Shown here: positions 6,261 to 64,000 of the stretch, in pieces
Position numbering within the stretch: position 1 is the stretch's first letter
Layout of the letters: each line of letters begins with the position of its first letter
NCBI GenBank assembly: GCA_032718475.1
Contig: JAUCBJ010007752.1
Span: forward strand, 26,544 to 90,543
DNA: 64,000 bases
Reading direction: 5' to 3'
DNA from: Nemertoderma westbladi
Taxonomy: Eukaryota > Animalia > Xenacoelomorpha
Notes under the pieces: generated by a model
Databases searched by the model: none
What the model saw: the letters and a program-made list of their open reading frames with translations, nothing else
Told to the model about the DNA's origin: nothing
Translations under genes and position numbers: made by a program

Positions 6261-6320
6261 TGTATTTTTATTTGCTAATTATATTCGTCCCAAATTTCAT
6301 GCTATTTATTCACGAATATT

Positions 6321-6800: not shown

Positions 6801-7011
6801 ACTTCATAATTTGTAACCAAGTAACATAAATGACCCCCTTGGAAATAAGCTGCAAAGCTTTAGGGGTAATCCTATTTGTTATGTTGGACAATACCTTTAT
6901 ACCGGTACATTGTTTGGTGTATTTGTTATTGTTTTTACATAATGTATAAATAAATTGTAGTTGTTGTTGTAATTGTTGTACTTTGACAATCTTGAGGAAG
7001 TTCTTAGAATT

Positions 7012-7478
7012 ATGAATTATTCTAAAGGTGCCATATCAGTAATGTTTACAGGAACTGGTGATGGACAATTGTTGCCAATGTATGTTGTGTATAAGAGTAT
7101 TGGTCTCTGGTCTACATTGTGCGAGCATTGGCCTCCTGGGTGATTTGATACCAGGGCATTTGAGGACTGGTTTAAAGGGAGCGTAGTGCCATGGGCTAGT
7201 AGATTGGAAGGTCAAAAAGTTGTAATAGGGGACAACCTCAGCAGCCATCTAAGACTAGAGGTTCTTTGCCTGTGCAGTGAAAATAATATCCTCTTCACAT
7301 TTATGCTGAAGAACACGACACACAAAACCAAACAATTAGATGTTGCGTTATTTGCTCCTCTTTAGAAGTCTTGGCAATGAATCATCACAACTTACAAGTG
7401 TAAACATCCCCATGCTACCACTGTTGACAAAGATCTATTCCTAACCTTTCTCTGTCAGCTATTGAGAGCTTGTGGTAT
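7012..7478 (+). pseudogene. pogo-like transposase remnant (copy 2), split by the BEL insertion; resumes at 25929
   Basis: Near-identical to copy 1 at a 1352-bp offset. Sequence from 25929 continues exactly as copy 1 (GGTATAGCTCCACTGG). Confidence 0.85.
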
Positions 7479-9441: not shown

Positions 9442-10239
9442 TTTTACTGAACTACGGTTCGGTAGGACTAAAGTTATTTGAAAATTTTGTATTTTGAGGT
9501 AAAAATTTGTATTTGATTAGCTAAGTGCTAATTTTTGAAATAAAATTTGATTTGAACCGCGTGTAAAATATTTTGGAATTGAATACCGGTGTTTAAAAGG
9601 GTTTAAATACCATATTGTACCGGTACAAAATTTTCGTAAAAAGTAAAACCTAACTCTTTTGTTTTTTCAGGATTCAGAACTCATTTCTAGACTGTAACGG
9701 GAGCAAGACCGTGTTTAGCAAGTTTGGGAGATAGATAACTCAACAACTTTGGTTGGGAAAATCGCGTTTCGTCCGCAACGTTAAAAACGGAAAGGTTCAC
9801 GTCCGGTTTGTATCTGGGAATCTGTTTTTCTGGAGAATTATTGGAGTGGGTGAGTTCGAAAAGTTGCATAAATAAGTTAGGCATTACCGTATTAGTTAAA
9901 ATTATTGTGGGTTCCACTGTCTCAAGTATTTATGCATTCCGTATGATTTCTTTGTTCATTGCTGAATTAGTCCGTATTATTGTATTTAATTTACCTTTTG
10001 ATAACGCATATCGTTATCCAATTTATTTGTTATAAAATTGGCCGCTAGGCTAATTTTATTATATACTTATTCCGTGACATTTATTTGCTGTAAAATTGGC
10101 CGTTTTAGGCTAATTTTATCCATCTGCTATAAAATCGGCCGGTAGGCTAATTTTATAAGACTGTAATTAGTACCGTTTAGATAAAATACGGTAAGTTTGA
10201 TACTTTGACACTCACTTTACTTGACTTACAACTACCGAA

Positions 10240-16200: not shown

Positions 16201-18861
16201 ATCGTGAACCTCATACAGACAGAACTACAGTCGAGTTTACAGATATTTTATTGGACTGACGCGACGTTGGTTTTATTTTACATAAACAACGACACACTCG
16301 AATTCAAGACATTCGTTGCTAACCGTCGCGCGGAAATTCTAGACCGTTCAATAAAAGAGGATTGGCGACATTGTCCCGGACCACAAAACCCAGCTGATAT
16401 TGCGTCGCGAGGAATGATGCCTGAGGAATTCTGTAAACCGCAGAACAAAGAATTTTGGCAACACGGACCCCAATTCTTGCAGAAATCGACACAAGATTGG
16501 CCACCATTATACGACAACAAGTCTAACACTATCCCTAAGGACGCCGAAATCAAGAAACCAAAAAAGGGGAAGACAAAGAAAAGGACGACGGCGGCAAAAC
16601 TCAAGAAAAAACCGAAGGCGAAATGGAAAGATATAACTTCAAAGGTCAAGAGAGGAAGACTTGCGAGCCTTTCTACACCAGACATATCGCCAGACGGTCA
16701 ACCAGACACGTTACCAGACGGTCAACAAGACACGTTACTAGACGGTCAATCAGACATTCTACCAGACATTAGTAACGCATTGACAAACAGTAAAGCCGCA
16801 GTTTCTCTATTGGAGCGGCCTTCTATCGACAAACAACCAGATACGTTACCAGACGTATCGCCAGACACATTACTAGACAGTCGACTAGACACTAGTAACA
16901 TACTGACAAATAGTGAAGCCGCAGTTTCCCTATTGGAGCGGCCTTGTATTGACAAACTACCAATTTTGACACACTTGAGCAACCATAAGCACGGTGAAAC
17001 CTCATGTATTACAGATGTGGGTAGTACCTACGCTAATGTAAATACAGGTGTTACTTTGCGCTCAAGAGACATACCGAACTTGCAACCTATGGTGAGACCT
17101 GGGATTAATGTCGGCAGAAAAATAAGTTTACCGAAACCTGCTGACCCCATAGAGTTCAAACCACCATTAACGATCGACTTACAAAGTACTGACGATCAAG
17201 GTAAGAAGACGAAGAAGGACAAATTACTTGTAGACCCGGACGGATCAACAGTCAACAAGGGAATACTTACCGGCGGACCCGTGGGCCCTTCTAGTAATTC
17301 AAAACCTTCCAAGTTCTCCATTGACTTACCTGATGACGTCACAAATACTTACGTCGACCGTATTGTAAACTTAACAGATTCTTGGACAAACGCTTGCCGA
17401 AAATTAGCGTGGATTGTACGTTTTGTACAATACGTTAAAGGCAAACGTGACTTTACACGTCGACTTACATTGGCTGAGATTGACAGGTGTGAGATTAAAT
17501 TAATTCGCCATTACCAACTGCGATATTTCGCGCGCGAATTCACATCTATAAGTCAAGGTCAATCAATCAAGTCGTCACCAATACTGAGTTGGAGTCCGAT
17601 TATTTATAATGGCTTAATTTGTCATAAATCTCGGCTTCAAAACATTGACTTTAACACAAACTTTAGGTACCCAATAATAATACCGCAACACCACGAACTA
17701 CAACGTGCAATGATACTGGACGCACATCTACATCTGAAACACGCTGGAAGACACCACTGTCTTTCCTACTTACGTACTAGATTTGTATTAATTAGACCCA
17801 GTAAAGCGTTAAGTTCAGTGACACGTACGTGTATTATTTGTAAAAAGGTACATTCTAGAATAGGTACCCAAGAAATGAGTGAACTACCACAAGCACAACT
17901 TCAAGCATTCAGACCACCTTTTACCGAGACTGGAATTGATTGCTTTGGTCCCATACATACGAAACGTGGACGTATACTAGTAAAACGCTGGGGACTGATT
18001 TTCACATGTATGTCCAGTAGGGCAGTTCATATTGAACGTGTGATGGATCTTTCCACCAACACGTTTATACTAGCACTGCGGCGATTTATCGCTAGACGCG
18101 GACTAGTGAAATGCTTGTACTCAGACCAAGGGACAAACTTTGTTGGTGCTCGAAATGAGATTGCTAGAGCCTTTAAGAAATTAGATCATGATCAAATCTC
18201 GAACGAACTGCAACCTCACAAGATTGTTTGGAAGTTCAATCCTCCAGATAGTCCATGGAGAGGCGGAGTCTGGGAGAGATTGATTAGATCTATAAAGACG
18301 GCAATGGCAAAGGTCATTCCAGTAAACCACATACTGACAGACGACCAACTGACAACATTGTTTGTTGAAATCGAGGCAATACTAAATACTAGACCAATAG
18401 TATTAGTACCCGATGACAAACAATCTCAGTTCGCTTTGACACCGGCACACCTGCTTATGCAGGCACCGACTACTTTGACGCCGATTTCTATTCCAATAGA
18501 AAGCGACAGCTACGGTAGAAAAGCGTGGAAAATCACGCAACTACTGGCTAACAAATTCTGGGAAATATGGCAAAACCATTATTTGCCCTCTATTTCTGCC
18601 AGAACAAACTGGTACAATAACACCCGCGCATTAAAGCCGGGAGATCACGTGCTGTTAGCGGAAGTGAATCTAAAAAGACGCTTCTGGATAACAGGTGTAA
18701 TTTTAGCCACACATCCATCTATGGATGGAGTGACAAGAACTGTGACAGTACGGACAATTGACGGTCGTACAGTAGACAGACCGACTCAACGTCTCGTACT
18801 CCTTGAAGAGACTCGTAACGAGTCTGGAGACTACAAATCTCCACCTAATACTAGTAAATAA
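10240..18861 (+). CDS. BEL/Pao Gag-Pol polyprotein (Gag, 3 Zn knuckles, PR, RT, RNase H, IN)
   Basis: CWRCTRHGHVRKDC and CPSCGRNHDGLLH; ILDSASSHSY (PR); YLPHH, RVVNDCAA, FYVDD (RT); LHCFSDAS, NPADIASRG (RNase H); GIDCFGP, SDQGTNF, GGVWERL (IN). Confidence 0.97.
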   Translation: MSDKQDYTKNTPTDYDSCDADKSAAEEQQGKTREPTEPTPCASPVHPTGVPDAVVRGDGRTEDFLTVPQPRYRETELVSSAGSTESVVRSVGGYMAHITRSIGEGQRILDELTAPMSRFEFYTLQVRVQSRVHKSVDNLIGLQDLARQRQDMDTQLRILEKLMIAREKLIQFKSTIRQIQQEQADQLLGESVSDELLQPEEEQELYRLDGQLKHLTDHLRMCGEDVGDWETVPEATRETSLAQIELAPGTLNQSLVSIRSEICEGSMVTSEVARQQQEFCRQRREMEEQAQLLVMQAAVEEEKLRVANVERISHLQEQAELEAAEVERLEVDIAQQTAAADLAQRNAAAELERQTAAAELAQRNAAAELERERLVSEARAEMKTRQIKAQSAIRQAEFEAQRQQTEQREKTAKLHFELEKKARELANAEEDLDQKARDRSMRSRDGHDLDQLEVRHRQIQERKKEGSVGAPGRERQLVKDVCQRFPQVTHMFAPVTTKEPVSIAGSSNISPIHGATEHRFVIPDKFTPPRATSSPILKVKVSNPPITDRSSLLTGPALLTTKQVSPPLTPKPVTHYAYPMTFRPTRPVVSNAVIRPPIQFTSQSTTSRKTCEPTEQRRPVDTRPLNQFTSQSTTSRKTCEPTEQRRSVDDVPRRNVRIRTTQRTRARRPPYPDDSSTSSESDYPKREVFRTGAADEYKRERSDNSFADNPPQNTPTQKALQPTDAISTQQFADILRPVVNKLAQIEERLEEGYTDSSRNSEFEHNRHPKEPQRPVPSNPTSNQGKAPRRDINKVTNQGRETLNVAEEIAKFAARQGLPVQQPPKFSGSSKHWHTFVDYIESQIAVCAFTSREKFNYLLQTLSGEPKRLAETFVGVPDAFELAYDRLTSIYGGTVSMARSVIEELCKGGAITKPVDLLKLADEIKNAITTLRSIGQLDYGNTPTVLLKIIGRLHHRLRREWRKVEYQREERGGFLKLEDVYLLISREAVVETRSNYTDQHIVAEGITLPSSNRQKPQTTSTKTATYATPTESRQFSDGSRVSAPIGTKQTRQQLGTDFSGCQYCEHLGKRYIGHKLRGCRQFRELNSEERRLQIRPLDSCWRCTRHGHVRKDCPNTDTCPSCGRNHDGLLHTDSHTPTKRFAREHPEAAARCDAAYRKRESKTTPTFVTHIEDCFSEQSGSSDEESEDDDEYSNGDEQPSIALLTTDQLKGFSVIPIKITGTKGSKRIYAILDSASSHSYVDEKIADVVTDLRQGKHVSYTVSSMHGQRAIPVTRVKLDLDSLLPKSQHSERERSLLPFKDLTFAATKDFSNLLGPVPEQSLEDRKYFRHLGVPECPVNYRSVAMLIGTDQFNLHQVWETRPSAVVAGNAYACRTPIGWYTRAPVRTLDVSDEEDDVQSTCSLLTTNSIHSFSHDVNHTTLQSTKHDRRVTSMISHKEQLIHKVSLELGEKTSQLEIPSTTDDRLASLPTPITSTVPVDIDDDALKIHQLEQAALDKELTEKTIRWLEQDTAEPGSYEPCMSEQEKQSLKIMEDTIHQTKDGHYEVGMLWRSQSPKLINNYPLALRRLHSIRQRLLKDEKAHLQYNTQMETYLTKGYAIRMTNPEIVTDQTYYLPHHYVRHPDKPDKVRVVNDCAALFEGMSLNSELMDGPNMNNYLMGVIMRFRQRQVAFTCDVEAMFHQVKALERDRDSLRFLWYPEGDLSLPPATYQMQVRVFGARDSPNCTMYALKQAARDQKHLYDPEIIKIVERDFYVDDGLQSCDTVERATTVAHQLRDCLAGGGFNLTKFASNSAELVDSFGTTERGGGDIDLEFEPLPTTKVLGLFWDPNTDNFRVKVRLDSQENTLTKRSCLSKLSRLFDPLGFISPVILQARIYMRSIWKDGLTWDEPISSDQVDLWKTWETELSSLEDYSIPRVYFPLQSTFPDNLELHCFSDASDNGFGVAAYLRRQVDSDEFDVSLITSKAKTMPTKYMTTPRAELQAATLSTTIVNLIQTELQSSLQIFYWTDATLVLFYINNDTLEFKTFVANRRAEILDRSIKEDWRHCPGPQNPADIASRGMMPEEFCKPQNKEFWQHGPQFLQKSTQDWPPLYDNKSNTIPKDAEIKKPKKGKTKKRTTAAKLKKKPKAKWKDITSKVKRGRLASLSTPDISPDGQPDTLPDGQQDTLLDGQSDILPDISNALTNSKAAVSLLERPSIDKQPDTLPDVSPDTLLDSRLDTSNILTNSEAAVSLLERPCIDKLPILTHLSNHKHGETSCITDVGSTYANVNTGVTLRSRDIPNLQPMVRPGINVGRKISLPKPADPIEFKPPLTIDLQSTDDQGKKTKKDKLLVDPDGSTVNKGILTGGPVGPSSNSKPSKFSIDLPDDVTNTYVDRIVNLTDSWTNACRKLAWIVRFVQYVKGKRDFTRRLTLAEIDRCEIKLIRHYQLRYFAREFTSISQGQSIKSSPILSWSPIIYNGLICHKSRLQNIDFNTNFRYPIIIPQHHELQRAMILDAHLHLKHAGRHHCLSYLRTRFVLIRPSKALSSVTRTCIICKKVHSRIGTQEMSELPQAQLQAFRPPFTETGIDCFGPIHTKRGRILVKRWGLIFTCMSSRAVHIERVMDLSTNTFILALRRFIARRGLVKCLYSDQGTNFVGARNEIARAFKKLDHDQISNELQPHKIVWKFNPPDSPWRGGVWERLIRSIKTAMAKVIPVNHILTDDQLTTLFVEIEAILNTRPIVLVPDDKQSQFALTPAHLLMQAPTTLTPISIPIESDSYGRKAWKITQLLANKFWEIWQNHYLPSISARTNWYNNTRALKPGDHVLLAEVNLKRRFWITGVILATHPSMDGVTRTVTVRTIDGRTVDRPTQRLVLLEETRNESGDYKSPPNTSK

Positions 18862-20349: not shown

Positions 20350-21519
20350 ATGACACCGGAAGTTTTCGAGAGCATAAACTTTGCTCAAAACGTTATTCAG
20401 AGACTACAGATTGCATCCCCGGAGAGGACAAGAGAAATGCAACCGTATAGTACTTCAACTACGAAACCATTGAGTACGACACTCAATTTCCCTATTAGTA
20501 TACCAGTCCGACAGGATACGACATACGAAATACCCATCGTGGATCATCCAGAAATCATTTCGAACTTGGAGTTTCTTCCTGCAGTTGTTTTCAGCGATAT
20601 GAGTAAGATATATGATTTACGTAGACATATTACTCAAAAGGTCGTGTACAACGTTCCACCTCATATCCAAGATTTTAAGGAACTGGATAGAGCTGGTGCC
20701 GATATAGCTCCGAGTAATCTGAAAGGATATCTAACCAAGACGATTCGTTTATGGATTGGAATCGGAACCTTCGAGTCGGATACAGATATTGCCGCAGATT
20801 GGCGAGGTAAGGTTATTCGCTTCGAAGATGATAAGGATATAGAGAAGATTTGGCAACCTTCGGAAGAATTGTTGGACGAATGGAATAGAACGTTTAGATC
20901 GTTTCAGGAAAACGGTTACATGTTTTACGATAACGAGGGCGGCAGTCATCAGCAGAGTTTGACTTCTAAGACTATACGGATTAGAGCGGCGGACGGAGTC
21001 CTGCACGTTTTCAGTAGACAGAGGAGCGACAAACGAATGCCGATACCTCCAGCGAATACAAAGCGACACCATCTTATCACCGATATAGTAAAGAAGATGG
21101 ACCAAGCTTGTAATATTGACGCTAGAATGCTACCGAAGATGGTAAGAAACATGATTTTAGATAAAACTGTTGTAAAGGTTGGATCAGGAGTAAGGGAGGA
21201 TTTAATTAGCGACTTCGCCGGCATGACGGACAGCGATGACCGACTACCGACACCATACGTCGACACTCGACCTCTTATTCTGTGGTCTATAGAACAGGGA
21301 TATTTTCGTGAGTATAATACTCAGAAGACTGGAACTGGATACATTTCCTACCTGTTATTCAATTGGGATTATAAGGAAAATAAGAGAAACAAGTATATTG
21401 AAACTTATGGAGAAGGTGATACTCCAGATATGAGTGAGTTTAATCACAGCTTAAATGGAGAGGATGCGTGTATTGGGCTATTACGTCACCTCCAAGAGCG
21501 GTCTTACAATATTATTTAG
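20350..21519 (+). CDS. BEL accessory ORF B, divergent WRN/RNase D-like 3'-5' exonuclease fold
   Basis: ILDKTVVKVGSGVREDL..YVDTR..KTGTGYISYLLF resembles the DEDDy Exo II region. The Exo I acidic motif is not clearly canonical. Confidence 0.55.
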   Translation: MTPEVFESINFAQNVIQRLQIASPERTREMQPYSTSTTKPLSTTLNFPISIPVRQDTTYEIPIVDHPEIISNLEFLPAVVFSDMSKIYDLRRHITQKVVYNVPPHIQDFKELDRAGADIAPSNLKGYLTKTIRLWIGIGTFESDTDIAADWRGKVIRFEDDKDIEKIWQPSEELLDEWNRTFRSFQENGYMFYDNEGGSHQQSLTSKTIRIRAADGVLHVFSRQRSDKRMPIPPANTKRHHLITDIVKKMDQACNIDARMLPKMVRNMILDKTVVKVGSGVREDLISDFAGMTDSDDRLPTPYVDTRPLILWSIEQGYFREYNTQKTGTGYISYLLFNWDYKENKRNKYIETYGEGDTPDMSEFNHSLNGEDACIGLLRHLQERSYNII

Positions 21520-25928: not shown

Positions 25929-26131
25929 GGTATAGCTCCACTGGAATGCACCAAGGTGTTGTCAAATTGGAAACTGCCATGAAAGCATAGGTGCCATAGG
26001 TGCAGTATTTGTGTGAAGCAAGAGTGGCTGACAGACACAAATTCCAAACCACGAAGGTATGGCATACATTTTGTATTTTTATTCGCTAATTATATTCGTC
26101 CCAAATTTCATGCTATTTATTCACGAATATT

Positions 26132-26421
26132 GTCGCGACTTTATTATTTTAGTCGCGACTTTATTATTAAAGTCGCGACTTTATTATTAAAGTCGCGACT
26201 TTATTATTAAAGTCGCGACTTTATTATTAAAGTCGCGACTTTATTATTAAAGTCGCGACTTTATTATTAAAGTCGCGACTTTATTATTAAAGTCGCGACT
26301 TCATTATTAAAGTCGCAACTTTATTATTTTAGTGGCGACTTTATTATTTTAGTCGCGACTTTATTATTAAAGTCGCGACTTTATTATTAAAGTCACAACT
26401 TTATTCGTATTAAAGTCGCGA
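26132..26421 (+). repeat. 20-bp satellite array
   Basis: Same unit as 5256-5448. Confidence 0.97.
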
Positions 26422-27533
26422 TTTTGATTGGATACTTCGCTTCTCCACCTTATTATAAGGCTTAGGCATAGAGTTGAATATTGTTTTCTTGTTACTCAGT
26501 ACCTTAATGCACTCTACTCTAGCATATACAGATATAGATAGACGGAAATTGAAAGTAAAATAGGCTACCCTTATATCTGAAGCTGTCTTTCATGGCAGCA
26601 TGCAACACAACTGGCCTAGGCCATGTGCTAGCTGTGCAGTAGTCTAAATGGGACAGTCTGGCTCTAAGGCAATTTAACTGAGGTTACTGGTTGCATATTC
26701 CTGTAATTGTAATTATGGCTGAGGACTTTATTTCCAAAATTAGATCCACGTATAACACATGTCTAACTATTTTAAATGGTGGTGTGGGTAGTTCACGAGC
26801 TGTCACGGGTGCTTACTTACAAGAACTAAATGGACAGTTGAATCATTCTATGGCATGTTTAGAACTGATAAACTCATCTAAAGCACCAGACAACTCTCTT
26901 GGTTTAGAATGTGCTAAAGATCGCAATCTACTTCAGCAATGTTTAATTTCAAAGACACAACTGAGCAAAACACTGCAACACAATAATGACTGTACATCCC
27001 TTTCGAGTAGTAGCCTCACTCCTATTTTGGAACAGGCAACGGCTGGTCGGCCTAAACTCTCTATTCCAAAAAAATCTCTGCAATATCTAAAGAGCTGCGG
27101 ATTTTCCTGGATCCAAATTGCTGGATTGTTTAAAGTTAGTAGGTCCACTATAATGACTCGAGTGCGTGCTTTTGGTCTTACGAAACCACTAGTAACTGTA
27201 AGTGATGAAGAACTTAACTCTGCCATCGATAAACTCCATCTTGATTTCCCTCTGGCTGGATGTTGGCTTATAAACTCGATGCTACGTACACAGTACAATT
27301 ATTTACCTAGAGTTAGTGAAGCCTTGACTGGTATCATACACCAACTATCTATATGCTAGAGTAGAGTGCATTACGGCACTGAGTAACAAAAGAACAATAT
27401 CCAACTCTAACCAACCAATGTTCTCCTGCTTAAAGCCTTATGTGGAGAAGCGAAGTATCCAATCAAAATAGCGACTTTAATACGAATAAAGTCGCGACTT
27501 TAATACGAATAAAGTCGCAACTTTAATACGAAT
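26400..27533. mobile_element. Inverted-repeat-bounded core of a foldback-like DNA element
   Basis: ATTTTGATTGGATACTTCGCTTCTCCAC (about 26421) is inverted as GTGGAGAAGCGAAGTATCCAATCAAAAT (about 27442). Satellite orientation flips across this core. Confidence 0.8.
26691..27359 (+). pseudogene. Truncated HTH-containing transposase N-terminus (eukaryotic IS481/IS3-like); catalytic domain absent
   Basis: GRPKLSI..LQYLKSCGFSWIQIAGLFKVSRSTIMTR..VSDEEL..FPLAG..INSMLR. Confidence 0.65.
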
Positions 27534-30810: not shown

Positions 30811-31314
30811 AATAACAAATACACCAAACAATGTACCGGTATAAAGGTATTGTCCAACATAACATATAGGATTACCCCTAAAGCTTTGCAGTTTATTTCC
30901 AAGGGGGTCATTTATGTTACTTGGTTACAAATTATAAAGTTAAAATAATAAAGTCGCGACTTTAATAATAAAGTCGCGACTTTAATAATAAAGTAGCAAC
31001 TTTAATAATAAAGTCGCGACTAAAATAATAAAGTCGCGACTTTAATAATAGAGTTGCGACTAAAATAATAAAGTCGCGACTAAAATAATAAAGTCGCGAC
31101 TTTAATAATAAAGTCGCGACTTTAATAATAAAGTCGTGACTTTAATAATAGAGTTGCAACTAAAATAATAAAGTCGCGACTAAAATAATAAAGTCGCGAC
31201 TTGTACACCACATAGTGTGACAAATACACCAAACAATGTACCGGTATAAAGGTATTGTCCAACATAACATATAGGATTACCCCTAAAGCTTTGCAGTTTA
31301 TTTCCAAGGGGGTC
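30811..31314 (-). repeat. Inverted copy of the satellite plus spacer arm
   Basis: Reverse complement of about 5256-5580; array at 30941-31202, then a second partial spacer copy to 31314. Confidence 0.93.
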
Positions 31315-31327
31315 CTTTATGGGGTGA

Positions 31328-38899: not shown

Positions 38900-41560
38900 A
38901 CAGCGGGCGACAGAGTGTGCCCGTGGTGAAGCTGACATAGTACTTGAATGGCAGGACCATGAATGCTTTTTGATTGGATTGAGCTTAACTGATGCTGTTG
39001 AAAACATTACGACATCCAATCAATCATATGCGGAGGTAGTGTTAAGCAATGTACAAAGCTCTACCCCAGCAGTTTCTACACTTAATAGTCAAGAATTGGC
39101 TAGTAGTGAGAACTCAGATTGGGTTACGCCTGCGCAAAGGCACACGATACCAAGAAGTCCCCGGTTACAAACTGAATTGGTGGCACCAAATTCCGGTTCA
39201 ACTGCGACATCTAACGCATTTAGTTGCTTGGAAATGGAAACTGACGAACCGTCTTTTACCCATGTGGTGTCCAGCATCCCGGACTGAATATAAACTCAAA
39301 GGTAAATAAGAGAATCAAAATATTTAACTTGTCCAATAGGGTTTTAACGTTTGATGAAAAGTCAGTATTAAGCAAAGGATTAAAATATAGTCCAATACCG
39401 CGCCAAAACTTAGAGGACCTAGTTACTAACATTGAAGAATTTAGAAGAAAAGTTTTAATAACAGACTTTTTCCATAACCGATGTTTTAATGACGAAAGCC
39501 TGGTAAAGTTGCCAAGCGATTTTAACCCAGAAAATTGCAGTTCGTGGGATCCGTCGCTGGGCACTAAGCAATTGTCTTCGATGCTGTCGCAACTAGGAAG
39601 AGATGTAGGATCTGGGCAGTTCCAAACTGAACAAAAACCCGATAATTTGACAGGTGGTGAACGGAAAGCGATAGGTAATTTAAAAAACGATGATAACATT
39701 ATTGTTATTCCAGCTGATAAAGGCGGGGCGGTTGTAATTTTAGATAAAGATTTTTACGTTGAAAAAATGAATAATATTTTAAAAGATGAGTCAACATATA
39801 AAAAATTGGTGAAAAATGTGGACAATTTAGTAATATCAAAGGTGGCCAAATACTGTAAAAACTTTGGCAAAATGATGACCACTAACGAGATACATTATGT
39901 AGTAAACAGGGAGTTTGAAACTTCACGGGCCTATGGTTTACCAAAAATCCATAAATCAAAAGAAATAAAGAGTTGGGTGGAAGAGGTTTGCCAACCTGGT
40001 GAAATATCGCATTTACCATGCCCGGGGGATTTGAAATTCAGATGTATAGTTGGTGGCCCACATTGTCCAACAAAAGGGTTAAGCAACTTATTAGATATTC
40101 TATTAAAACCGTATCTGCAATTCATTGGGGCGCATGTAAAGGACACATTTGATTTTCTCCGAAAGTTTAGAAATTTTAAGGATGTGTTCAAGGAGCTAGA
40201 GGTGGTTCACCTTATAACAGTGGATGTAGAAAGTATGTATCCCTCAATAACATGGGAGTTGGGCGAAAAGGCAATATCCTACTGGTTAGATAAGCACCCG
40301 GAATGTTTAAACAAACGATTTACCAAGGAGTTTGTATTGAAGGGGTTGGAAATTGTGCTGAACAACAATACAATGGAGTTCCAGGGGATGTATTATATAC
40401 AAGTTAAAGGGATGGCTATTGGAACTATATTGGCACCAACTTATTCAGATTTGGTAATGGGTTACTTGGAACAAACAAGATAAATTTTATCCAGAGATAG
40501 AACGAAAATATGGAACGGCCGTTGCTAATTTTATTGAGAAAATGTGGACCAGATTTTTAGATGACGGTGAACTTGCTGTCGATGATGCCATCATTAAACC
40601 GAACCAAATACTGCAGATATTGAATACCATGTCACCGGGAATAAGTTTTACGATGGAAACAAGTCAAACGAGTATAAACTATTTAAATGTTACAATAAAC
40701 CGCATTAATAATATTTTAGAAACCGAAGTATTTTTTAAGCCAACAGATTCAAGGGAGTACCTTCCATTTTCGTCCTGCCATCCAAGACATGTAAAAATAA
40801 ATATACCATACAATATGTCACGTTTGCTGGCTACAATTATTGATAATAGAAGTATTCTGGAAACCAGGTTAATTAAACTAAAAGAGTCACTGATACGATC
40901 AGGTTATCCGGAAGACCTTTGTGGTGACGCAGTGGAATGGGCGTTAACGTTGAACAAAACCACACTATTGAAAGAAAAAGTGAAATCGAGTACAAACATT
41001 CTGCCAATGGTTCTAAACTACAATCCATTAAACCCACACGTGTTCCCTATGGTAAAAAATTGCATCGCTCAAATGTCGATCATATGGATCATAGATCAAA
41101 CTATCGTATTCGAACTGTTTTTGGGAATACCAAGGTGATTTGTAGTTACAGACGGGCACCAACATTAAAGGATATATTTCACTCTGATCCAATTTAATAT
41201 AACTCCATTTCACAAAATGAGAATTGGCTCAACACCTGTAGCAAGGCGGATAAAGGAAGATTTCTTTATTAAAAGATATAAGCCCTCCCCTCAACAGTTG
41301 AATCTGGAACACAATGGAATGGAACAGTGAACCACAAAGGAACTATAGAAATAGTAACATTAGTAGCCCCCCCCCCCCCCCCCCCCGCCCTTCTTCATCG
41401 CCTAATGATCAACTAACTCATATTCCCTAAACTGGTGTATTGCATAGTATATTACACATACTTTAGGCCCACATTTAGTATAATTCTATAATTTGCCTGA
41501 AGATAACTTTAAGTTTGAAATGCATTGCAATTTTTATAAATAATTTTAAATACAGTATTT
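38900..41560 (+). mobile_element. Penelope-like element (PLE), frameshifted RT, GIY-YIG domain not seen
   Basis: LSKGLKY, PADKGGAVV, YGLPKIHK, DVESMYPSI, GMAIGT, TRFLDD, FKPT..YL.FSSCHP in ORFs 39329-40483 and 40542-41138. Boundaries approximate. Confidence 0.92.
41492..41531 (+). ncRNA. Minimal type I hammerhead ribozyme in the PLE 3' region
   Basis: TTGC-CTGAAGA-tAAC tttaa GTTt-GAAA-TGCA-TT-GCAA: core boxes, stem II, palindromic stem III and stem I all present. Confidence 0.7.
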
Positions 41561-52379: not shown

Positions 52380-55300
52380 TAGCTGTACTGTACAAGTTGG
52401 AGGGTAATGATGGTATTCGCAATGCTCTGGAGAATGGTTCTGACTCAGAACCTGAGGAATAAATTTGTACTGTGTAGATTCAGCGTCTCGGAAAAGAGAA
52501 CTCCGGATCAAGGGATAGACCCAGGCCCATTCTGGCTGTTGTCCGCAACAGAGAGGATCGCAACGTTATTTTGAGTAACGCTAAGAAGTTGAAGGAGGCA
52601 GAGGCTCCATTCAAAACCACGTATCTAAAGAAGGATGTTCATCCAAGTATTAGGAAGGAGATGGGTCGCCTGCGTGCGCGAGAATATACGGAGAAGAAAA
52701 AGCCACAGAACGAGGGGTGCGAAATATACTTGGATTATCGTGAGCGGGTGTTGAAGCGGGACAGTCTAATTATCGACAGATTCAACGCGGTCCTGAGCGC
52801 CTAGCGGCGCGTAGGGCATGATAGACGTCTACGGATATGTTCGTGGAATGCTAGAGGAGTTTGTGACAAACTATTAGAACGTGACCGACTGAAATTTTTT
52901 AGTCAATTTGATTTAGTTTGGGTTCTTGAAACTAAGACAGCTGCAAAGATTTACTTACCGGGATTCGAGGGTGTCCAGAACACTTCCAAGAAGAACTCTA
53001 ACCGCGGAGGAGTTGCTCTATTTATTAAAGACTACCTACTACCACAGATTAAACGATTAGACTGCGAGACAGAAGGCTACATTGCTATAGAATTACTATG
53101 TCTCCCAGATTGCTTGTTAAGCGGCTGCTATATTCCGCCCTTAGACTCGCCGTACTACGATCCGTTCCAACTCGCCCAGCTTCAGGCGCAACTACAGACA
53201 GGCGGCCAATCCGTTGTAGTTCTAGGGGATCTTAACGCTCGAGTTGGCGACGCTTCGCCTCACCTAGATGTGCCTTACAGAAACATAGTCGACCGAGATG
53301 TAAACCGCCACGGGAAGGACGTGATCTGTAAATCTACGAATTCTCTTATTTTAAACCATCTCGAATACAAAGGTAAACAGTTGGGAGGAAATCTTTCATA
53401 CAGGATGGGAAATAAATGGGTTTCAGAAATCGATATAGGTGTAGCGAAGGGGCCTATTCTAAACTGTATCTCTCGCTGGGAAGTCGACCAGTCCGTAACC
53501 GGATCAGACCACGCCGCACTACTGCTCGACGTAGATTGCGGTTTGCAGGTCCCAGTTAGTGACCTAAAGAACCGCTCAGTACTCCTGGGCGTTTCAGGTA
53601 ACCAAACAAAATCTGGTCTTGGGAACAGTACACACCACTCGAACGTCGATTGCGTCAAGTTCCACAATGTAATGGAGGAAGTCGAACCTCCGCTCCTGGT
53701 CGGTCTATCTCCGGAGGATGTAGATACCACGCTGAAGGATTTAAATAACCTTATCGCCTCCAGTTCTAGAATAGCTCGCAATCCGGGCTGCAACACTAGA
53801 TTCGATAAACGCAACAAATATACTAGGTGGGAAACCATTCTTGAAGGTAATGATCCTAAACAGATATGGCGGGCAATAAACTGGAAGGGCCAGCTGTACG
53901 ACGGTAACGATAATCTCGCTCAGGACCAACCGCCCCCTAGCCAGTTTAAAGCTCACTTTGAATCTCTACTAAATCCCACAAGCGCCGTTCCGCTAAGCGC
54001 TGGAATCGATCCTGAGTTTGAATCGGCGCCGTATATACCGGAACTAGACGATAAGTTTACTCCACGCGAGCTTGCTGATACTCTAGCTGATATTAAGGTT
54101 AATAAAGCGTATTGGGGCATTAGTTTAGGGTTAATATGCAAACTTCCAGGATCTTGGTTAATTTTTATGTTATCAATATTCAATGTAATATTTGAGTATG
54201 TACGATTCCCCCCAGCATGGTGTTACAGTAAACTGTTTGTGCTTTATAAGAATAGTGGGTCACGTATGGACTGCGGTAATTACCATGGTATTAGTATTGT
54301 TGACTCATTCGCTAAGATTTATGATATGCTTATAAACTCTAGGCTGCTTAGATGGGTCAATATTGACAGCTGTCAAGCGGGTGGTAGAAAGAACCGTGGG
54401 TGTACTGAACAAGTTGTTGCATTACGATTATTAATTAATTATGCTATTTCTAAGAAGTGTAAATTATTTGTTATGTTTGTCGATTTTCGTAAAGCCTACG
54501 ATCTGGTTCCCCGTAACAAACTGTTGAATGTACTAAGGGAAGCAGGCTGTGGGAAACAATTACTCTACGCCATTAGGGCTATATATAGTTGTACAAAAAT
54601 TGTGTTGAAAGATGCAGTAATTATATCTATTCTCGGTGTAAAACAAGGTGCATCAACCAGCATAACTTTATTTTGTATGTATTTAAATCAGTTTGTTGTA
54701 AGGTTACGTGCAGCGTACAGTACAGATGGTTTTTTGGGAATTATACAGATATTGCTACTTATGGATGACTCAGTTATTCTGTCTACTACACGTAGCGCAT
54801 GTGAAACAAAATTTCGTGTTCTAGCTGATTATTGTACAGATTACGGAATGACTATAAACCCCAAAAAGACAAACTTTATGGTTATTAATGGATCGTTGTC
54901 TGACCGGGTCCCCATAGAATATGGAGGAATTAAAGTTTCTAACTGTGCTACATACATTTATCTAGGCTCACCATTCTGTGAGAATGGTAAAATGTCCTCA
55001 GTGCTCAATGTACACGCAAGTCGGTGTACCGATGCTGTTAATAAGTTTATTATTTTCTGTACGGTCAACGATTCAATGCCCTTCCACTTGAAACTGAAAG
55101 TTTTCCAAGCTTGCCTATCAGCAGTACTGACATATGGGTGTGAGTCTTGGTTAACTAGAGATTTCAAGTCTATAGAGGTACTGTATATGAAAGCGATTAA
55201 GTCGTTGCTTGGGGTACGTAAAACTACTCCGAATGACGTCTGTTTGGTAGAACTCGGTATTAAACCGCTACGAGCCATTGTTGTCGAAGCTCAAAAGAAA

Positions 55301-55991
55301 TTGTTCACAAAATACTCAAAATTAGCCGACAGAGCTCTACCAATCACGCAAACTCTTGATTTATGTGCAAATGTGGTAGGAATACACGGATATACTATAC
55401 TATCTGGTGCGTGCAATGAAGATATTTCTAACTACAATTTAGATTCTATTAGGCGTAGGATTCGTAGTAAGCCACCCACTGCGACTAAGTTTTGGTCATA
55501 CTGTCATGATATTAACCCGGAGCTAACAGTACATACAATTTATCGTGATAATGTTAACTACATACCAGACTACCAGCGTAAAGCATTTACTCGTTTTAGG
55601 GTGTTTTCGCATGAGTTACGCAGTGAAAAGGGTAGATGGAGTCGTACTCCGCCTGCCGAGCGTGTGTGTTCATGCGACCACATCTCAGTTCAGAACGAGG
55701 AACATGCAGCTATGATATGTTCTCGTACTAGGGAACTACGTGGTCAATTTCGTTACGTTGGATATTCGTCTTTAGTAGATCTGTTTCGTTGCCAGGATAC
55801 AAAACAACTGTGTTGCTTCATTGAAAAAGTATTAGACAAATTTAAATGTTAATCAGTAAATTAGTTGGACAAATATTGTGCTCTACCGTGTTATAATGTG
55901 AGTTAATTAATTAAGTTTGTTTTCAGTGTATTGTGTAATAATTATTGCTTTGTTTATCGAAAGTATTTGTCAATAAAATAATAATAATAAT
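52380..55991 (+). mobile_element. 5'-truncated LINE (RTEX-like) with an ORF1 C-terminal part, open ORF2 and (AAT)n tail
   Basis: ORF1 piece IQRLGK..RPRPIL..ILSNAKKLK; ORF2 as below; tail AATAAAATAATAATAATAAT near 55972-55991. Confidence 0.85.
52805..55852 (+). CDS. LINE ORF2: APE endonuclease, RT and C-terminal CCHC
   Basis: Frame is open from 52805: ICSWNARG, VLET, RGGVA, YIPP, LGDLNAR, SDH; FVDFRKAYD, GVKQG, LMDD, YLGS; RVCSC..EEH..C. Confidence 0.92.
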   Translation, partial: RRVGHDRRLRICSWNARGVCDKLLERDRLKFFSQFDLVWVLETKTAAKIYLPGFEGVQNTSKKNSNRGGVALFIKDYLLPQIKRLDCETEGYIAIELLCLPDCLLSGCYIPPLDSPYYDPFQLAQLQAQLQTGGQSVVVLGDLNARVGDASPHLDVPYRNIVDRDVNRHGKDVICKSTNSLILNHLEYKGKQLGGNLSYRMGNKWVSEIDIGVAKGPILNCISRWEVDQSVTGSDHAALLLDVDCGLQVPVSDLKNRSVLLGVSGNQTKSGLGNSTHHSNVDCVKFHNVMEEVEPPLLVGLSPEDVDTTLKDLNNLIASSSRIARNPGCNTRFDKRNKYTRWETILEGNDPKQIWRAINWKGQLYDGNDNLAQDQPPPSQFKAHFESLLNPTSAVPLSAGIDPEFESAPYIPELDDKFTPRELADTLADIKVNKAYWGISLGLICKLPGSWLIFMLSIFNVIFEYVRFPPAWCYSKLFVLYKNSGSRMDCGNYHGISIVDSFAKIYDMLINSRLLRWVNIDSCQAGGRKNRGCTEQVVALRLLINYAISKKCKLFVMFVDFRKAYDLVPRNKLLNVLREAGCGKQLLYAIRAIYSCTKIVLKDAVIISILGVKQGASTSITLFCMYLNQFVVRLRAAYSTDGFLGIIQILLLMDDSVILSTTRSACETKFRVLADYCTDYGMTINPKKTNFMVINGSLSDRVPIEYGGIKVSNCATYIYLGSPFCENGKMSSVLNVHASRCTDAVNKFIIFCTVNDSMPFHLKLKVFQACLSAVLTYGCESWLTRDFKSIEVLYMKAIKSLLGVRKTTPNDVCLVELGIKPLRAIVVEAQKKLFTKYSKLADRALPITQTLDLCANVVGIHGYTILSGACNEDISNYNLDSIRRRIRSKPPTATKFWSYCHDINPELTVHTIYRDNVNYIPDYQRKAFTRFRVFSHELRSEKGRWSRTPPAERVCSCDHISVQNEEHAAMICSRTRELRGQFRYVGYSSLVDLFRCQDTKQLCCFIEKVLDKFKC

Positions 55992-59720: not shown

Positions 59721-61132
59721 TTTTGAATGGCCTCAAAATGCAGCTTACTAGGTCATGTATATATAGTAGGCCATGGGAGCGTTATATAAAATGCTATATC
59801 TCAAAAACGGCATGACAGATTTTGAAAAAATTTAGCAGCGGCTTTCTGTCATTCATATCTATCGTTAGGGGTATGATACATTTGACCTTCCGTGTATATT
59901 TAGTATTCCATGAGCTAACTTATATTTACTGAATTATTTTTAGTTACATAGATATTAATGTCTGAGTTATCCCTTTTTAAACGGAACCGTTTAAAATGAG
60001 CTAACTCAAAATTGTTGGAATTATTTTGAGTAAGCTCCCTGGGTTAAACGGTTCTGTTTAAACGTAGCTAACTCAGTTAATGGAATTCCTATTCAAAATG
60101 ATAATTGTAATTAAATTAAATTTATTATACCAGTACAGGCTATAAATATTGAAATTGATATCCAATCACAATGGGGTAGACAAGTCGGAATTTTTTTTCG
60201 AGTTTTCGTTGGTTTCATGTGAAAGAGCATGTGAAAAAACCCCAGAGAGCAATTTTACTTAAAAAAATTAATATTGGCCGAGTTATAGCGATTTTAAAAC
60301 GCAAAATTAGCAACATCGAAAAATCAGGCTGTTTCAGAAAACTGCACGAGTGACGTCACTCGTGCAGCACTAAATGTTCATTGGTTACTATACAATATAA
60401 ATCTCTTAGTAACTAAAATAAATTGTGTAGCTAATTTTTATTTAGTGTGTTTTGGTGTTGTGTTAAGAATACATTATTTGATATCTTAATGTGGAAATTG
60501 ATTCATAACAAGTTAATTATTCCAGAATAATAATTATTTATCCCAAACTATACAGTTGTTAGCTATAAAAATAAAACATATTTTGTAGCTAAAACTGCCA
60601 GGTGGTAGAAATCCAGTAGCTTATTGATGTTTTATTAAGCTTCAAAACTTAGATTACTTTGGATTAGATTGTGGATTCGCACTTTTTCGATTGTAATTAT
60701 TTTTATACAAGTTCAATTATTGAATTCCATAAAGCATTGATAGTTAGTCCATGTAGCTGTAATGGATGACGTAGTAAAAATATCTTCAGCTGCCATCTCA
60801 ATACAATCAGCATTAATCAGAATTTAGTTGAACTATAACTATAATTTACATTTTTTAATTATCTATTTTTTCACAATTTTGGGAAATATATATTTCTTCT
60901 AGAAGCTACTACTACTTTTCAGTAAACTTTGCATGTATATGGAATCATATGATACTTCAACTATTTTCACTTCGCCATTTATTTCAAAAGATGGATCTGC
61001 GACGCTAAACAAGGCCCATTGTTTATTGCAAAGATGTATTTGAAGTTGGATTTGTGACATGAATTTAGCGCTTACGATATTCGATTGTGTAAGATAAGAT
61101 TTTTGAATGGCATGTTTTGATGTTGGATATTT

Positions 61133-61411
61133 ATAAATGAATTGTTGTGGGGTGGGTGACGGCGAATTAAATATAATATGTTATAGTACATTATTGTGCA
61201 TACATTATAGTGACTGAAAAAGGCCTAAATATGATAGCCCACTCCATAGCGAATAAATCTTCTACCGCCCTGGTAGCTCAGTGGTCTTAGGACACAAACT
61301 CGGCTGATGATAACCGGAAGTTTGAAACCTAGGTACCGGGTTCGAGCCCCAATAGTGGTGGTTGATATTTTTCGCTATGGAGAGCATTATCATAATGTAC
61401 TATAACATATT
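61133..61411 (+). mobile_element. Small insertion with a 13-bp TSD, foldback arms and a central tRNA-like/hammerhead unit
   Basis: Direct repeat ATGTTGGA(T/C)ATTT at 61120-61132 and 61412-61424; inverted arms at 61173-61194 / 61392-61413 and about 61230-61270 / 61355-61393. Confidence 0.8.
61265..61372 (+). ncRNA. tRNA-like Pol III unit containing a type I hammerhead ribozyme
   Basis: A-box TAGCTCAGTGG 61274-61284; CTCGG-CTGATGA-tAAC cggaa GTTt-GAAA-CCTAGG-TA-CCGGG 61299-61340; B-box GGTTCGAGCCC 61339-61349; T5 61368-61372. Confidence 0.8.
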
Positions 61412-61889
61412 ATGTTGGACATTTTACTTCTACCACATGCGTTGGTGTAATGGCATCTGAAATGGCATCAAAAAATAAGATTTTGTGGTATTTTATAAAA
61501 ACACTAGCTACAATATTAAAACAGTACATACCATTGAAAACACTAGCTACCACAAACATTTGTTTTTATTTTCTTTAAAACATTTTTTTTTCACATGTAA
61601 CTAGCCAAAATATATCAAGAACATAAACCAATAGCCCAAAACATTACGTTTTGGTATTTTTTGGTATTTTGATATTTTTGGATGTCAAACCAAAAACGGC
61701 TAGAGTTCTGTACATCCGTACATCATTCTGTACATTTTTAAAATGACTTGAATTGCCCGTGTATTGTCATTTAATGTTATGGAATAGATTTTTTATATTG
61801 TACTATTGCATTTGTTTATTACATACAAATAGTTGATTTTTTATAAAAATAACTTTATACAGTGTACTGTAACAACTGTATCTAATAGA

Positions 61890-62954
61890 TTACGCAGCTG
61901 GGTATGCACGTTTTATTGCATCAATTATATACATGAAACTATTCCTACTCTCTTTCCGCATTTGTCTCCTCCAAAGATACGTGATGATTTTGTCTGCGAA
62001 CTTATCTGCGTATTCTGAACATTTGGTGCATTCGGCACGTTTATTATATTTCGCACATATCTTTATCCTGGTCTTCTGTTTGATCTGCTTTAATTTCTTC
62101 TTATGGATTTCGCATGCCTTCTGCACGCTTTCGCAATCACTGCATTCCTCTTGTTCCTCGTTGATTTTAGTAGTCTTTTCCTTTGCTTCTCTGCCCAGTT
62201 TGTTCAAATCCGTTTCACATTTTTTGCAGACACTTCTCAATTTCACAGTTCTAAAGTAATCCTTTGCTGGTTTCCATGACGATTCTATCCTGTTTGTGTG
62301 TGTTCCGTCCTCAGCAACGAAAGGATTTGTCTTTGAGCTGTGATTTACAACCTTATGCGTGTATTCTAGATTCTCTAGGTCGTTGTACGCCTTCCATAGA
62401 TCCGTTCGTATTGTTGTTCCATCTTTAATGTGCTTCTTAATGATGGGCAGTAATTCATTTGCGCTTCTTTTATTATTTGGGCAAAGAATTAACCGTAGGT
62501 CCTCTTTTCCGTCTTCTATCATTCCTAATACCCAATGTCCCTCAGTCCTACGCCCTTTGTTGTGCTTTCGTTTACCAAATGTACTTTCATCGATTTGCAC
62601 AATCGTTTCTGGCCCTCCCATTTGTCCCTTTGCTTCCTGTTCCTCAAGAAATCTATCTGTAATCAATTCTTGGCAGTAATTGTACCAGTCGGCTATACTC
62701 TCTTGGGACAATCGTATGTTGTCTGGTTCGTTCTCTGAATTTATATCTATTGCTTCACGGCGACAGTAGTCGTAAGAGTCATTGACAGAGTATGAGTATA
62801 TTATATTAAGTACTTTTTCAGGCGCCAGTTTCACTCCCTCAAACCATGTTCCCTTTGTTATTGAAATTTCGTTTTCTCTACATTCTCCATTTCTGCATCT
62901 AAATCTTCCAATTCCCTTAGTTTTTTCATTAAAATGCATGTCAGTATGGTGCAC
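61890..62954 (-). CDS. Merlin/ISXO2-like DDE transposase (N-terminus disrupted)
   Basis: VQIDES.FGKRK..KGR..WVLG, IRTDLWKAY, VNHS, HTNRIESSW. Confidence 0.92.
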   Translation of the reverse strand: MHHTDMHFNEKTKGIGRFRCRNGECRENEISITKGTWFEGVKLAPEKVLNIIYSYSVNDSYDYCRREAIDINSENEPDNIRLSQESIADWYNYCQELITDRFLEEQEAKGQMGGPETIVQIDESTFGKRKHNKGRRTEGHWVLGMIEDGKEDLRLILCPNNKRSANELLPIIKKHIKDGTTIRTDLWKAYNDLENLEYTHKVVNHSSKTNPFVAEDGTHTNRIESSWKPAKDYFRTVKLRSVCKKCETDLNKLGREAKEKTTKINEEQEECSDCESVQKACEIHKKKLKQIKQKTRIKICAKYNKRAECTKCSEYADKFADKIITYLWRRQMRKESRNSFMYIIDAIKRAYPAA

Positions 62955-64000
62955 AGTGCATATCTTTTTTTGGAAGAAGATTAACTCCCTGTAACCAGTT
63001 AATTGTCGATGTCCTGTCCCTGCACACGCTGTACAAATGACGGCGATTGATAATGGAACACATTTTTTCTGCTTTTTTAGAATGTTCTATAATATTTAAT
63101 TAGCATCACTCAAGAAACATGGTGTTATGGTATAGTAAAAAAATCTCGCAAAATGGGGGGACGTACGGAACTGTTCCCCCAAAAACAGCTATTATGAAAG
63201 GCAGAATAGTGGTGACACGCCGCAGGCAACACTAGTACCAGTAACAGTGAACTGACAAAAAAAAACTAAATAATTTCCATCTAGTGCTAATCTACCCATC
63301 CCGCATTGTTCGCTGTAAAAACAATTAAAAAATATATTAATGAAATGCCTGGCAGTATTTAGCTAGCTATATTTGTTTTTAGCTACAGCTCTATGGTACA
63401 GGTATGGGCGAAATAAATATTATTCTAGAATAATTAACTTGATATGAATAATTTGCCTCCATACCACTATCCTATAATCGATTCTTAACACAACATAAAT
63501 ACACATCCAAATAAATACATAGCTACATTTATTATTTGTTTTATTTTAGATACTGCAATATTATACTTTATATTAGCCAATCAACTGCGCTTGACAACTG
63601 TTGCTGTGTTATGGCTGACGTCACTCGTGCAGTTTTCTGAAACGGCCTGATTTTTCGATGTTGCTAATTTTGCGTTTTAAAATTGCTATAACTCGGCAAA
63701 TATTAATTTTTTTGAAGTAAAATTGCTCTCTGGGGTTTTTTCACATGCTCTTTCACATGAAACCAACGAAAACTCGAAAAAGAATTTCCGATTCGTCTAC
63801 CCCATTCCAAATAGTACTGTGGGGGATGTAAATGCCACATATAAATAACTAACGTACTAGTGAGCTATTTTATTATTGTTAAACATTGTTGTGTTTTATA
63901 TGTTCTAGAATACGTAATACTCAAGGAAACGAGTTAAGTGTCCGAACGATAGGTATGCCATCGAGTGGACGCTACATCACTCCCCCCCAGTGAGGGCACG

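Follow-up and report, generated by a model that had tools for sequence, protein, structure and literature searches.

Insertions of Penelope-like elements (PLEs) are described as containing an inverted, 5'-truncated copy and a tail of 30–40 bp at one end (cited passages of PMC8557442). Target-site duplications (TSDs) of 8–10 bp and action in trans are reported in the cited part of PMC3846280, and the cited passages of PMC11167929 describe two internal start sites of reverse transcription (RT) that bound the tail, AT-rich targets and uncut RNA as the main template. In that same work, cutting was not required for insertion in vitro. The hammerhead ribozymes of metazoan PLEs have a palindromic stem III formed by two molecules and cut poorly in vitro (cited section of PMC4209133). 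Animal retrozymes are organized in tandem and were argued to derive from PLE ends (cited sections of PMC7229834 and 10.64898/2026.07.22.740005), and retrozyme RNAs are said to mask their own hammerheads by self-pairing (cited passage of PMC5680766). In the schistosome Sm-alpha repeat, a promoter is followed by a hammerhead, as outlined in a passage of the review PMC6765202. In Schistosoma mansoni, 2,342 of the 2,368 predicted tRNA-Gln copies, called by tRNAscan-SE, were classed as Sm-alpha-like SINEs (cited passage of PMC2770079), which implies that the tRNA part of Sm-alpha is intact. Helenus carries its tRNA-like part inside the LTR (cited section of PMC10886601).

We analyzed an insert in a window of 64,000 nucleotides from Nemertoderma westbladi (the window is the whole stretch of DNA under study, and all positions refer to it). 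The insert combines several PLE-type traits, specifically an inverted truncated partner, a tail of 37–42 nt at one end, a TSD and a type I hammerhead with a palindromic helix III near the 3' end. The TSD of 13 bp is longer than the 8–10 bp of the cited PLE passages, and the tail may reach 42 nt compared with 30–40. We consider it probable (about 0.72) that the insert represents head-to-head truncated copies of an abundant repeat with a predicted hammerhead in a tRNA-derived shell, and that a Penelope-like RT-endonuclease is likely to have copied the insert from a long RNA that had not been cut. The features are collected in Table 1. Part of the stretch is also contained in five of eight listed public sequencing runs, all of one organism and from three studies; X1, X2, X3 and X4 denote such runs below.

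Table 1. Positions of the insert, its parts and its surroundings in the window.
Positions	Strand	Feature	Basis
39245..41531	+	Broken Penelope-type RT element with its own hammerhead (41492–41531)	RT relatives; descriptor match at 41497
60899..61132	-	Downstream half of host frame; the gene may be YqaJ/lambda-exonuclease-like and part of a multi-copy element	Weak matches; multi-copy depth
61120..61132	+	Left TSD	13 bp, one mismatch; empty site known
61133..61174	-	Penelope-type 3' tail of the short inverted copy	37–42 nt, boundary ambiguous; none on the long copy
61170..61194	-	Short 5'-truncated inverted copy of the family 3' end (outer inverted arm)	Inverted-repeat match; depth trough 61184–61215
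61195..61208	.	Junction of two head-to-head copies	14 nt not common to other copies
61209..61411	+	Long tail-less 5'-truncated copy of the family unit	Fold z = -4.66, 0/200 shuffles
61230..61256	+	5' arm of the family's inner inverted repeat, upstream of tRNA +1	Pairs with 61368–61394
61267..61273	+	Acceptor 5' strand, tRNA positions 1–7	Register tables
61274..61284	+	A box, tRNA positions 8–19	Box match; U8 = 61274
61285..61298	+	Spacer; 61286–61291 predicted to pair with the stem III palindrome, locking the ribozyme off	Pair probabilities
61299..61340	+	Predicted type I hammerhead with palindromic stem III	Descriptor, Rfam, fold; cut predicted after 61335
61339..61349	+	B box / T-loop	T54 = 61341
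61353..61360	+	Acceptor 3' strand (66–72) and position 73	Register from U8 = 61274 and T54 = 61341
61368..61394	+	T5 (61368–61372), where Pol III may terminate; inner repeat, 3' arm	No variant row at T5
61412..61424	+	Right TSD	Direct-repeat comparison and empty site in public runs
61412..61520	-	Upstream part of host frame, ending in EVKCP	Reading at break; no family match

Structure of the insert and its insertion site

The insert of 279 bp (61133–61411) is bordered by 13-bp direct repeats that are identical at 12 of 13 positions (61120–61132 and 61412–61424). Contigs from the public runs (two in X1 and one in X3) pass from 61132 directly into 12 letters that are found after 61424, and because such empty-site contigs exist, the duplication is a true TSD. 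An earlier note, made from the letters alone, had described the insert with its 13-bp TSD (one mismatch), A box, hammerhead, B box, T5 and nested repeats. All of these were found where it had placed them, and the duplication that it wanted examined is confirmed by the empty-site contigs of two runs. The window contains no second copy; the best other blastn match covers 27 nt at 20946–20972 and has no hammerhead stems.

On the minus strand, the insert interrupts a reading frame in which EVKCP is read at the break. The same note had named the interrupted frame YqaJ. Its reading of EVKCP at the break holds, and the YqaJ label is weakly supported by a match of the downstream half to a RecE-like exonuclease in PHROG (E 0.044) and by an Atlas cluster in the third row of matches with 12% YqaJ. 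Neither half was found in Pfam, there were no homologues among longer proteins and there was no meaningful match in PDB. A YqaJ-type ORF is carried by ISL2EU transposons, as described in a passage of PMC4482050.

The insert consists of two copies with a 14-nt junction between them. The one on the minus strand (61133–61194) is short and tailed, and the plus-strand one (61209–61411) is long and has no tail. Contig depth is zero at 61195–61202, and before 61209 the other copies have a different sequence that they share with one another. The tail is rich in A and C (68% over 61133–61169). Two pairs of inverted arms are nested in the insert, the outer arms (61170–61194 and 61392–61416) with an identity of 96% and the inner arms (61230–61256 and 61368–61394) with 81%. 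Since the head-to-head pair matches the published PLE signature, the outer foldback is a product of the insertion, and only the inner foldback belongs to the family. The picture of one rod-like unit with two nested repeats, also from the earlier note, thus stands for the inner repeat as a part of the family unit, while the outer one results from two copies lying head to head. The inner inverted repeat may itself be an older inversion that became fixed in the master copy. An assignment of the whole left half (61133–61256) to a single inverted copy was dropped, as 61209–61256 is contiguous with the tRNA part in other copies; the inner 5' arm is joined to it in 14 of the 24 listed pieces, which are the longest of 1970 and include some loci seen in different runs. 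The insert stretch is predicted to fold more stably than any of 100 shuffled sequences (z = -5.2), and the plus-strand unit 61209–61411 is itself predicted to be a stable rod (z -4.66 against shuffles).

The tRNA-derived shell and the predicted hammerhead

The A and B boxes are both full matches and represent the sole A–B pair within 100 nt in the window. In the insert copy, five of seven acceptor pairs are present. This copy has a private T at both 61356 and 61359, where G and C are found in 95–99% of the family depth; with the family majority at tRNA positions 69 and 72 and the insert copy's own G71, six of seven pairs form (naive chance 0.014). Position 71 varies (C in 53–58% and T in 11–13% of the depth), and pair 2–71 is then broken unless position 2 changes as well. 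G and A are seen at position 2 in the loose ends of other copies, an unphased hint of covariation. Three of five T-stem pairs are left, and there is neither a D-stem nor an anticodon arm. T-stem positions 49–53 are at the same time the 3' strand of hammerhead stem I, with the B box overlapping this stem. T-arm and acceptor presumably resemble those of a eukaryotic tRNA-Lys.

ARAGORN at default settings called 0 genes in the insert, and Rfam tRNA gave no match at E-values up to 10. Relaxed ARAGORN settings gave inconsistent calls, which were discarded. The two anchors flanking the ribozyme retrieve 12 viral control loci. ARAGORN classes every one of them as a tRNA, and their acceptors keep the register of the insert with five to seven pairs. 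The distance from U8 to T54 is 45–48 in 11 of these loci and 68 in the remaining one, with 67 in the insert. Because both acceptor strands and the T-loop keep the tRNA register, the predicted ribozyme occupies the site of the anticodon arm in a tRNA-derived shell. This replacement had been proposed in the earlier note, and the identity of the 12 control loci as tRNAs speaks for it as well.

We regard it as quite improbable that B box and acceptor pairing are merely a chance likeness of hammerhead stem I and loop 1 without tRNA ancestry. A chance likeness would agree with the alignment of Rfam HH9, in which an extension of the model's own stem I covers these letters, with the two negative tRNA searches and with a short-spacer variant that lacks the final GG of the A box (15, 13 and 2 contigs), but it is at odds with the sole full pair of boxes, with the six acceptor pairs in register and with the retrieval of only tRNAs by the same anchors. 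Among the copies, the A box is the looser of the two boxes, G61283 being replaced by T in 3% (X2), 10% (X3) and 49% (X4) of the depth. Variants of the B box account for at most 0.4% of the depth in X2 and X3 and for about 4% in X4.

A hammerhead descriptor that requires the core, the first two stems and a palindrome as stem III matches twice in the window, in the insert and at 41497, compared with a single match in a set of 150 random windows whose dinucleotide composition equals that of the real one. Stem I is formed by 61299–61303 and 61336–61340, the core CUGAUGA lies at 61304–61310, stem II at 61311–61323, GAAA at 61324–61327 and the stem III palindrome at 61327–61334. Rfam Hammerhead_HH9 matches at E 0.048, but its 17.5 bits fall short of the gathering score of 52, and the wider scan gave no match to the insert stretch. 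Slightly ahead of HH9 is a minus-strand match to mir-3 (E 0.02). Stem II is weak, with three pairs and a U-U, and its base does not have the G10.1–C11.1 pair that is typical of PLE hammerheads; in both the insert and the PLE elsewhere in the window, A-U or U-U is found there instead, an unusual base that the two hammerheads share.

According to the fold predictions, stem III would form well solely between two molecules, and the ribozyme would need a dimer and be locked off in the monomer. Self-pairing of the palindrome in a dimer is predicted at -15.2 kcal/mol. In the monomer, the spacer segment 61286–61291 is predicted to pair with the palindrome, with a probability of 0.55–0.65 in an RNA from +1 to T5 and of about 1.0 in the long unit, while the predicted pair probability of stem I is close to 0.

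Across the other copies, there is no variant row (differences from 2%) in 61317–61343, which spans the rest of the loop and stem II, GAAA, the palindrome, the cut site, the 3' strand of stem I and the start of the B box. Within the core, 61304 and 61307 differ in no more than 0.5% of the depth in X2 and X3, and in X4 a single contig with a depth of 183 carries a pair of core changes (22% and 15%). The frequent variants lie in loop II (44–64%), in the stem I wobble, which becomes C-G (21–58%), in the spacer and in the acceptor. The catalytic core and the B box are thus kept in the contig variant table, as the earlier note had expected. The 3' stretch beyond the ribozyme, with one variant row in 61360–61410, is no more variable than the core, so this conservation may reflect youth or RT binding rather than selection for cleavage. 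The looser A box and the 80% identity that the contig alignment required likewise call for caution.

The descriptor was also applied to 260 loci that match general patterns, from collections poor in animal DNA (5 + 15 viral, at least 120 from metagenomes in 39 of 64 parts and at least 120 from prokaryotes in 54 of 64 parts). Four of them passed a relaxed hammerhead form, none with an upstream A box. A stricter descriptor matched none of 140 loci, and a family-specific pattern had no matches in metagenome_contigs.

Copies of the family and a possible route of copying

Contigs of the public runs were aligned to 61195–61424 (230 bases, the left end of the insert being left out of the reference) at an identity of at least 80%. 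This gave 1195 contig records in X2, 651 in X3 and 68 in X4. Summed depth reaches peaks of 20,000–300,000, against 6–50 for the majority of long contigs taken singly. It does not give the number of copies, but its height suggests a high-copy repeat. The earlier note had predicted a mobile multi-copy family and suggested a copy-number search; the contig records of three studies, the multi-copy depth and the empty site all bear this prediction out.

The family has two 3' ends about 40 nt apart, because some contigs carry a tail behind 61410 and others stop at 61403–61408. The sense-strand tail is found in nine X2 contigs, has a median length of 40 nt and resembles the reverse complement of 61133–61169, whereas the tail-less ends run into unlike AT-rich flanks (21 contigs in X2, 18 in X3 and 3 in X4). 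Nine opposite-strand joints were counted among 15 of the 17 joints, at different coordinates and each in one contig per run; their head-to-head geometry was confirmed from record coordinates for two (61265/61345 and 61232/61317) and inferred for the rest. Some joints near 61234–61254 could be deleted copies aligned to the mirror arm. In seven listed junctions, an inverted tail is joined to a plus copy whose truncation point lies between 61292 and 61376. The depth over 61315–61394 is 6, 18 and 21 times that of the A box (X2, X3 and X4, respectively), in line with 5' truncation. Mobilization by a Penelope RT, raised as a possibility in the earlier note, agrees well with these head-to-head junctions and the optional tail.

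Other copies reach at least 58 nt upstream of the tRNA +1, past T5 and across the cut site. Fourteen of the 24 listed pieces have their start at 61242 or further upstream, span the ribozyme core and differ in 6–27 letters. Upstream of 61209, 6 contigs in X1, 15 in X2 and 9 in X3 continue into shared sequence, which is known solely as short loose ends (median length 150, 33 and 70 nt, respectively). The ratio of A-box depth to the depth upstream of +1 is 2.14 (X2), 1.03 (X3) and 0.90 (X4). There is no depth step at the predicted cut site in the contigs of the public runs, and six of nine short partners start upstream of it. With copies crossing the cut site, we infer that the copied RNA was uncut, or religated.

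These boundaries bear on the SINE side of the SINE/retrozyme-like family offered in the earlier note. A conventional tRNA-derived SINE would have its own internal promoter and be mobilized by a LINE, the hammerhead being incidental. Boxes in tRNA register, a TSD, a high copy number, the roughly two-fold rise of X2 depth at +1 and several long pieces that begin at 61258–61269 are all SINE-like, but X3 and X4 have no step at +1 and most of the listed pieces begin further upstream, as given above. Neither is there an A-rich or simple-repeat 3' end; the ends at 61403–61410 meet unlike flanks or an AC-rich tail, and the combination of head-to-head copies with an optional tail is a PLE trait. A transcript from +1 to T5 would also lack the 3' end at which copying starts. 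Two SINE traits, a start at the tRNA 5' end and a LINE-type tail, are therefore lacking, and with copies extending both upstream of +1 and downstream of T5, the contig alignment largely refutes a LINE-type SINE, which we hold to be highly improbable.

In the main reading, a GIY-YIG nuclease would nick AT-rich DNA at sites 13 bp apart, and reverse transcription would begin internally at two points some 40 nt from each other, so that one copy has the tail and the other lacks it. The two copies would point outward and be truncated at variable 5' positions. Uncut RNA would be the template, since the ribozyme would need a dimer and the predicted monomer fold locks cutting off. This template would be longer than a Pol III monomer from +1 to T5, because that transcript lacks the upstream part and the 3' start of copying. 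The A and B boxes could not drive the copy's own template, because the template starts upstream of the boxes and passes T5; they would most likely be the promoter of a terminal-repeat-like unit and drive the next unit of a tandem by read-through, or else be a relic of the tRNA that is tolerated. A non-coding unit (retrozyme-like and mobilized in trans) seems likelier than the end of an autonomous element.

Two other explanations overlap with this main reading and differ from it in the source of the RNA. In one of them, a real if minority possibility, the unit would be the pseudo-LTR of an autonomous protein-coding PLE with a captured tRNA, and the short inserts would be its heavily truncated copies, made by the same mechanism acting in cis. 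The continuation of copies upstream of 61209 into shared sequence (X1, X2 and X3) and the nearly equal depths upstream and at the A box in X3 and X4 would be expected of such an element, and PLE hammerheads are mostly solo truncated ends according to the cited part of PMC4209133. It fits poorly with the frame that starts from the core ATG, which closes after 32 codons, whereas the Poseidon ORF starts at stem II (cited passage of PMC11167929), and with the strong inner rod around the ribozyme, which is more like the retrozyme RNA described in the cited passage of PMC5680766.

In the other, which is possible but doubtful, the unit would be a Pol III-driven tandem retrozyme with head-to-tail masters, in which read-through and self-cleavage of dimers would yield circles that template PLE reverse transcription. 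A circle or multimer would account for templates that include sequence before +1; the locked rod-like monomer and the palindrome of stem III fit as well, and such a cycle is known for Sm-alpha and animal retrozymes (cited passages of PMC6765202, PMC7229834 and 10.64898/2026.07.22.740005). The insert locus has a single hammerhead. No same-strand go-back joint was present among 15 of the 17 joints, although a unit longer than the aligned stretch would hide one, the conserved T5 directly after the tRNA should stop most Pol III transcripts, and the depth passes the cut site without a step, all of which count against a tandem origin.

A bolder extension of the main reading, which we think unlikely, starts from the position of the predicted cut between the boxes. 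A monomer running from cut to cut would carry the B box first and the A box last, and only uncut multimers or religated circles would give transcribed daughters. The strand shared by stem I and the T-stem, together with the spacer, would then act as a switch between a tRNA-like fold and an active dimer, the acceptor helix would be under selection, and the family would be a self-cleaving, Pol III-driven parasite of Penelope elements.

The window itself contains a broken Penelope-type element, relatives of whose RT carry RT and GIY-YIG Pfam domains; no PLE relatives were confirmed in viral_contigs. This element shows that PLEs exist in the genome, not that it is the partner of the insert. Nine comparisons of it with the 3' end, the tail and the upstream part of the insert gave no significant similarity (the best score was reached by 27 of 300 shuffles), and a partnership of the two is not supported.

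Relation to known mobile elements

The insert is best read as a PLE-mobilized terminal-repeat or retrozyme-like unit with a putative fusion of tRNA and hammerhead, the ribozyme being predicted from its sequence. We found no description of a hammerhead inside a tRNA in the main texts of the openly available papers that our searches covered. The nested layout is therefore new as far as our literature and pattern searches reach. A natural fusion of tRNA and ribozyme with one shared strand would be a route for a PLE end to gain a Pol III promoter. A cut site inside the promoter would give cutting a built-in, testable consequence, which bears on the role of hammerheads in PLEs. The tail and the head-to-head pairs are moreover genomic support for short non-coding hammerhead repeats that use PLE enzymes, which the 2026 preprint argues by phylogeny. 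If the boxes or the ribozyme are dead, the family would be one more PLE-derived repeat with an odd history.

With endonuclease-positive PLEs (Penelope/Poseidon and Neptune), as described in the cited passages of PMC3846280, PMC8557442, PMC11167929 and PMC4209133, the insert shares the inverted truncated partner, the tail at one end, the TSD and AT-rich flanks, as well as a type I hammerhead with a palindromic stem III and a presumably uncut template. It differs from them in that the insert copy has no ORF, the predicted hammerhead is placed inside a tRNA shell with A and B boxes, and stem II is without G10.1–C11.1; a hammerhead in a tRNA shell is not described in the PLE passages of these four sources. 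Animal non-LTR retrozymes, in the cited parts of PMC7229834 and 10.64898/2026.07.22.740005, are likewise short and non-coding, with a type I hammerhead, self-paired RNA and a proposed dependence on PLEs. They are defined by head-to-tail tandems and circular RNA; no sign of tandem arrays or of ends at the cut site was seen in the contigs of the insert family. The term ‘Polymerase III’ has 0 occurrences in these two sources.

Like tRNA-derived SINEs and the TRIM Helenus, the insert is a non-coding mobile element in which what is left of a tRNA would probably provide an internal Pol III promoter. In contrast to these, it has no LINE-type 3' tail and no LTR, PBS or PPT, and the middle of its tRNA is taken by the predicted ribozyme. 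The nearest described mix is that of the schistosome repeats Sm-alpha and Sj-alpha, which likewise combine tRNA-derived Pol III boxes with a type I hammerhead in a high-copy repeat. Compared with the Sm-alpha layout, as given in the cited parts of the review and annotation descriptions, the putative ribozyme of the insert lies inside the tRNA, and its cut would separate the A box from the B box.

Variants of the tRNA-hammerhead family

Contigs from public runs contain two variants of the high-copy repeat family to which the insert belongs. One has the same A box and spacer, followed by a different 5' strand of stem I, while the second has a short spacer and an A box without its final GG. Stem I and the acceptor-helix pair 2-71 of the tRNA-derived shell appear to vary between subfamilies.

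Other repeats and coding regions in the window

Features of the window (positions in the window)
Feature	Position	Strand	Characteristics
ORF 1	10225-18861	+	2878 codons, uninterrupted
ORF 2	52805-55852	+	1015 codons, open
Penelope-type RT element	39245-41531	+	broken, two frames
Its predicted type I hammerhead	41492-41531		palindromic
Transposase ORF, ISXO2-like (IS1595 family)	61890-63086	-	Pfam E 4e-17
Arrays, unit roughly 20 bp	5256-7478; 26126-26425; 30929-31321		match on both strands
Inverted matches	60456-60522 / 63428-63495

Judged by eye, ORF 1 resembles an LTR retrotransposon polyprotein of the Bel/Pao type, and ORF 2 looks like an endonuclease-RT frame of the non-LTR type. The inverted matches may frame a larger element that encloses both the transposase ORF and the YqaJ-like frame (a weakly supported label), which is the host reading frame interrupted by the insert. 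The short-unit arrays recur at several places with common flanks and form a family of the MITE- or satellite-like kind.

Hammerheads of the Penelope-type element and of other collections

No GIY-YIG of the Penelope-type element was seen in the three frames of positions 41100-41500. Its hammerhead and that of the insert have an unusual stem II base in common.

Among the pattern matches in other collections, a metagenome contig (L090) carries a type I hammerhead-like motif on the minus strand, from forward position ~350. The motif starts just behind a stretch that resembles the T-arm and 3' end of a tRNA, and ARAGORN predicts a tRNA-Met at c[475,551]; this is possibly a ribozyme within a tRNA trailer. 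A bacterial MAG chromosome (L187:301-345, minus strand) also contains a hammerhead-like motif, in which stems II and III are long.
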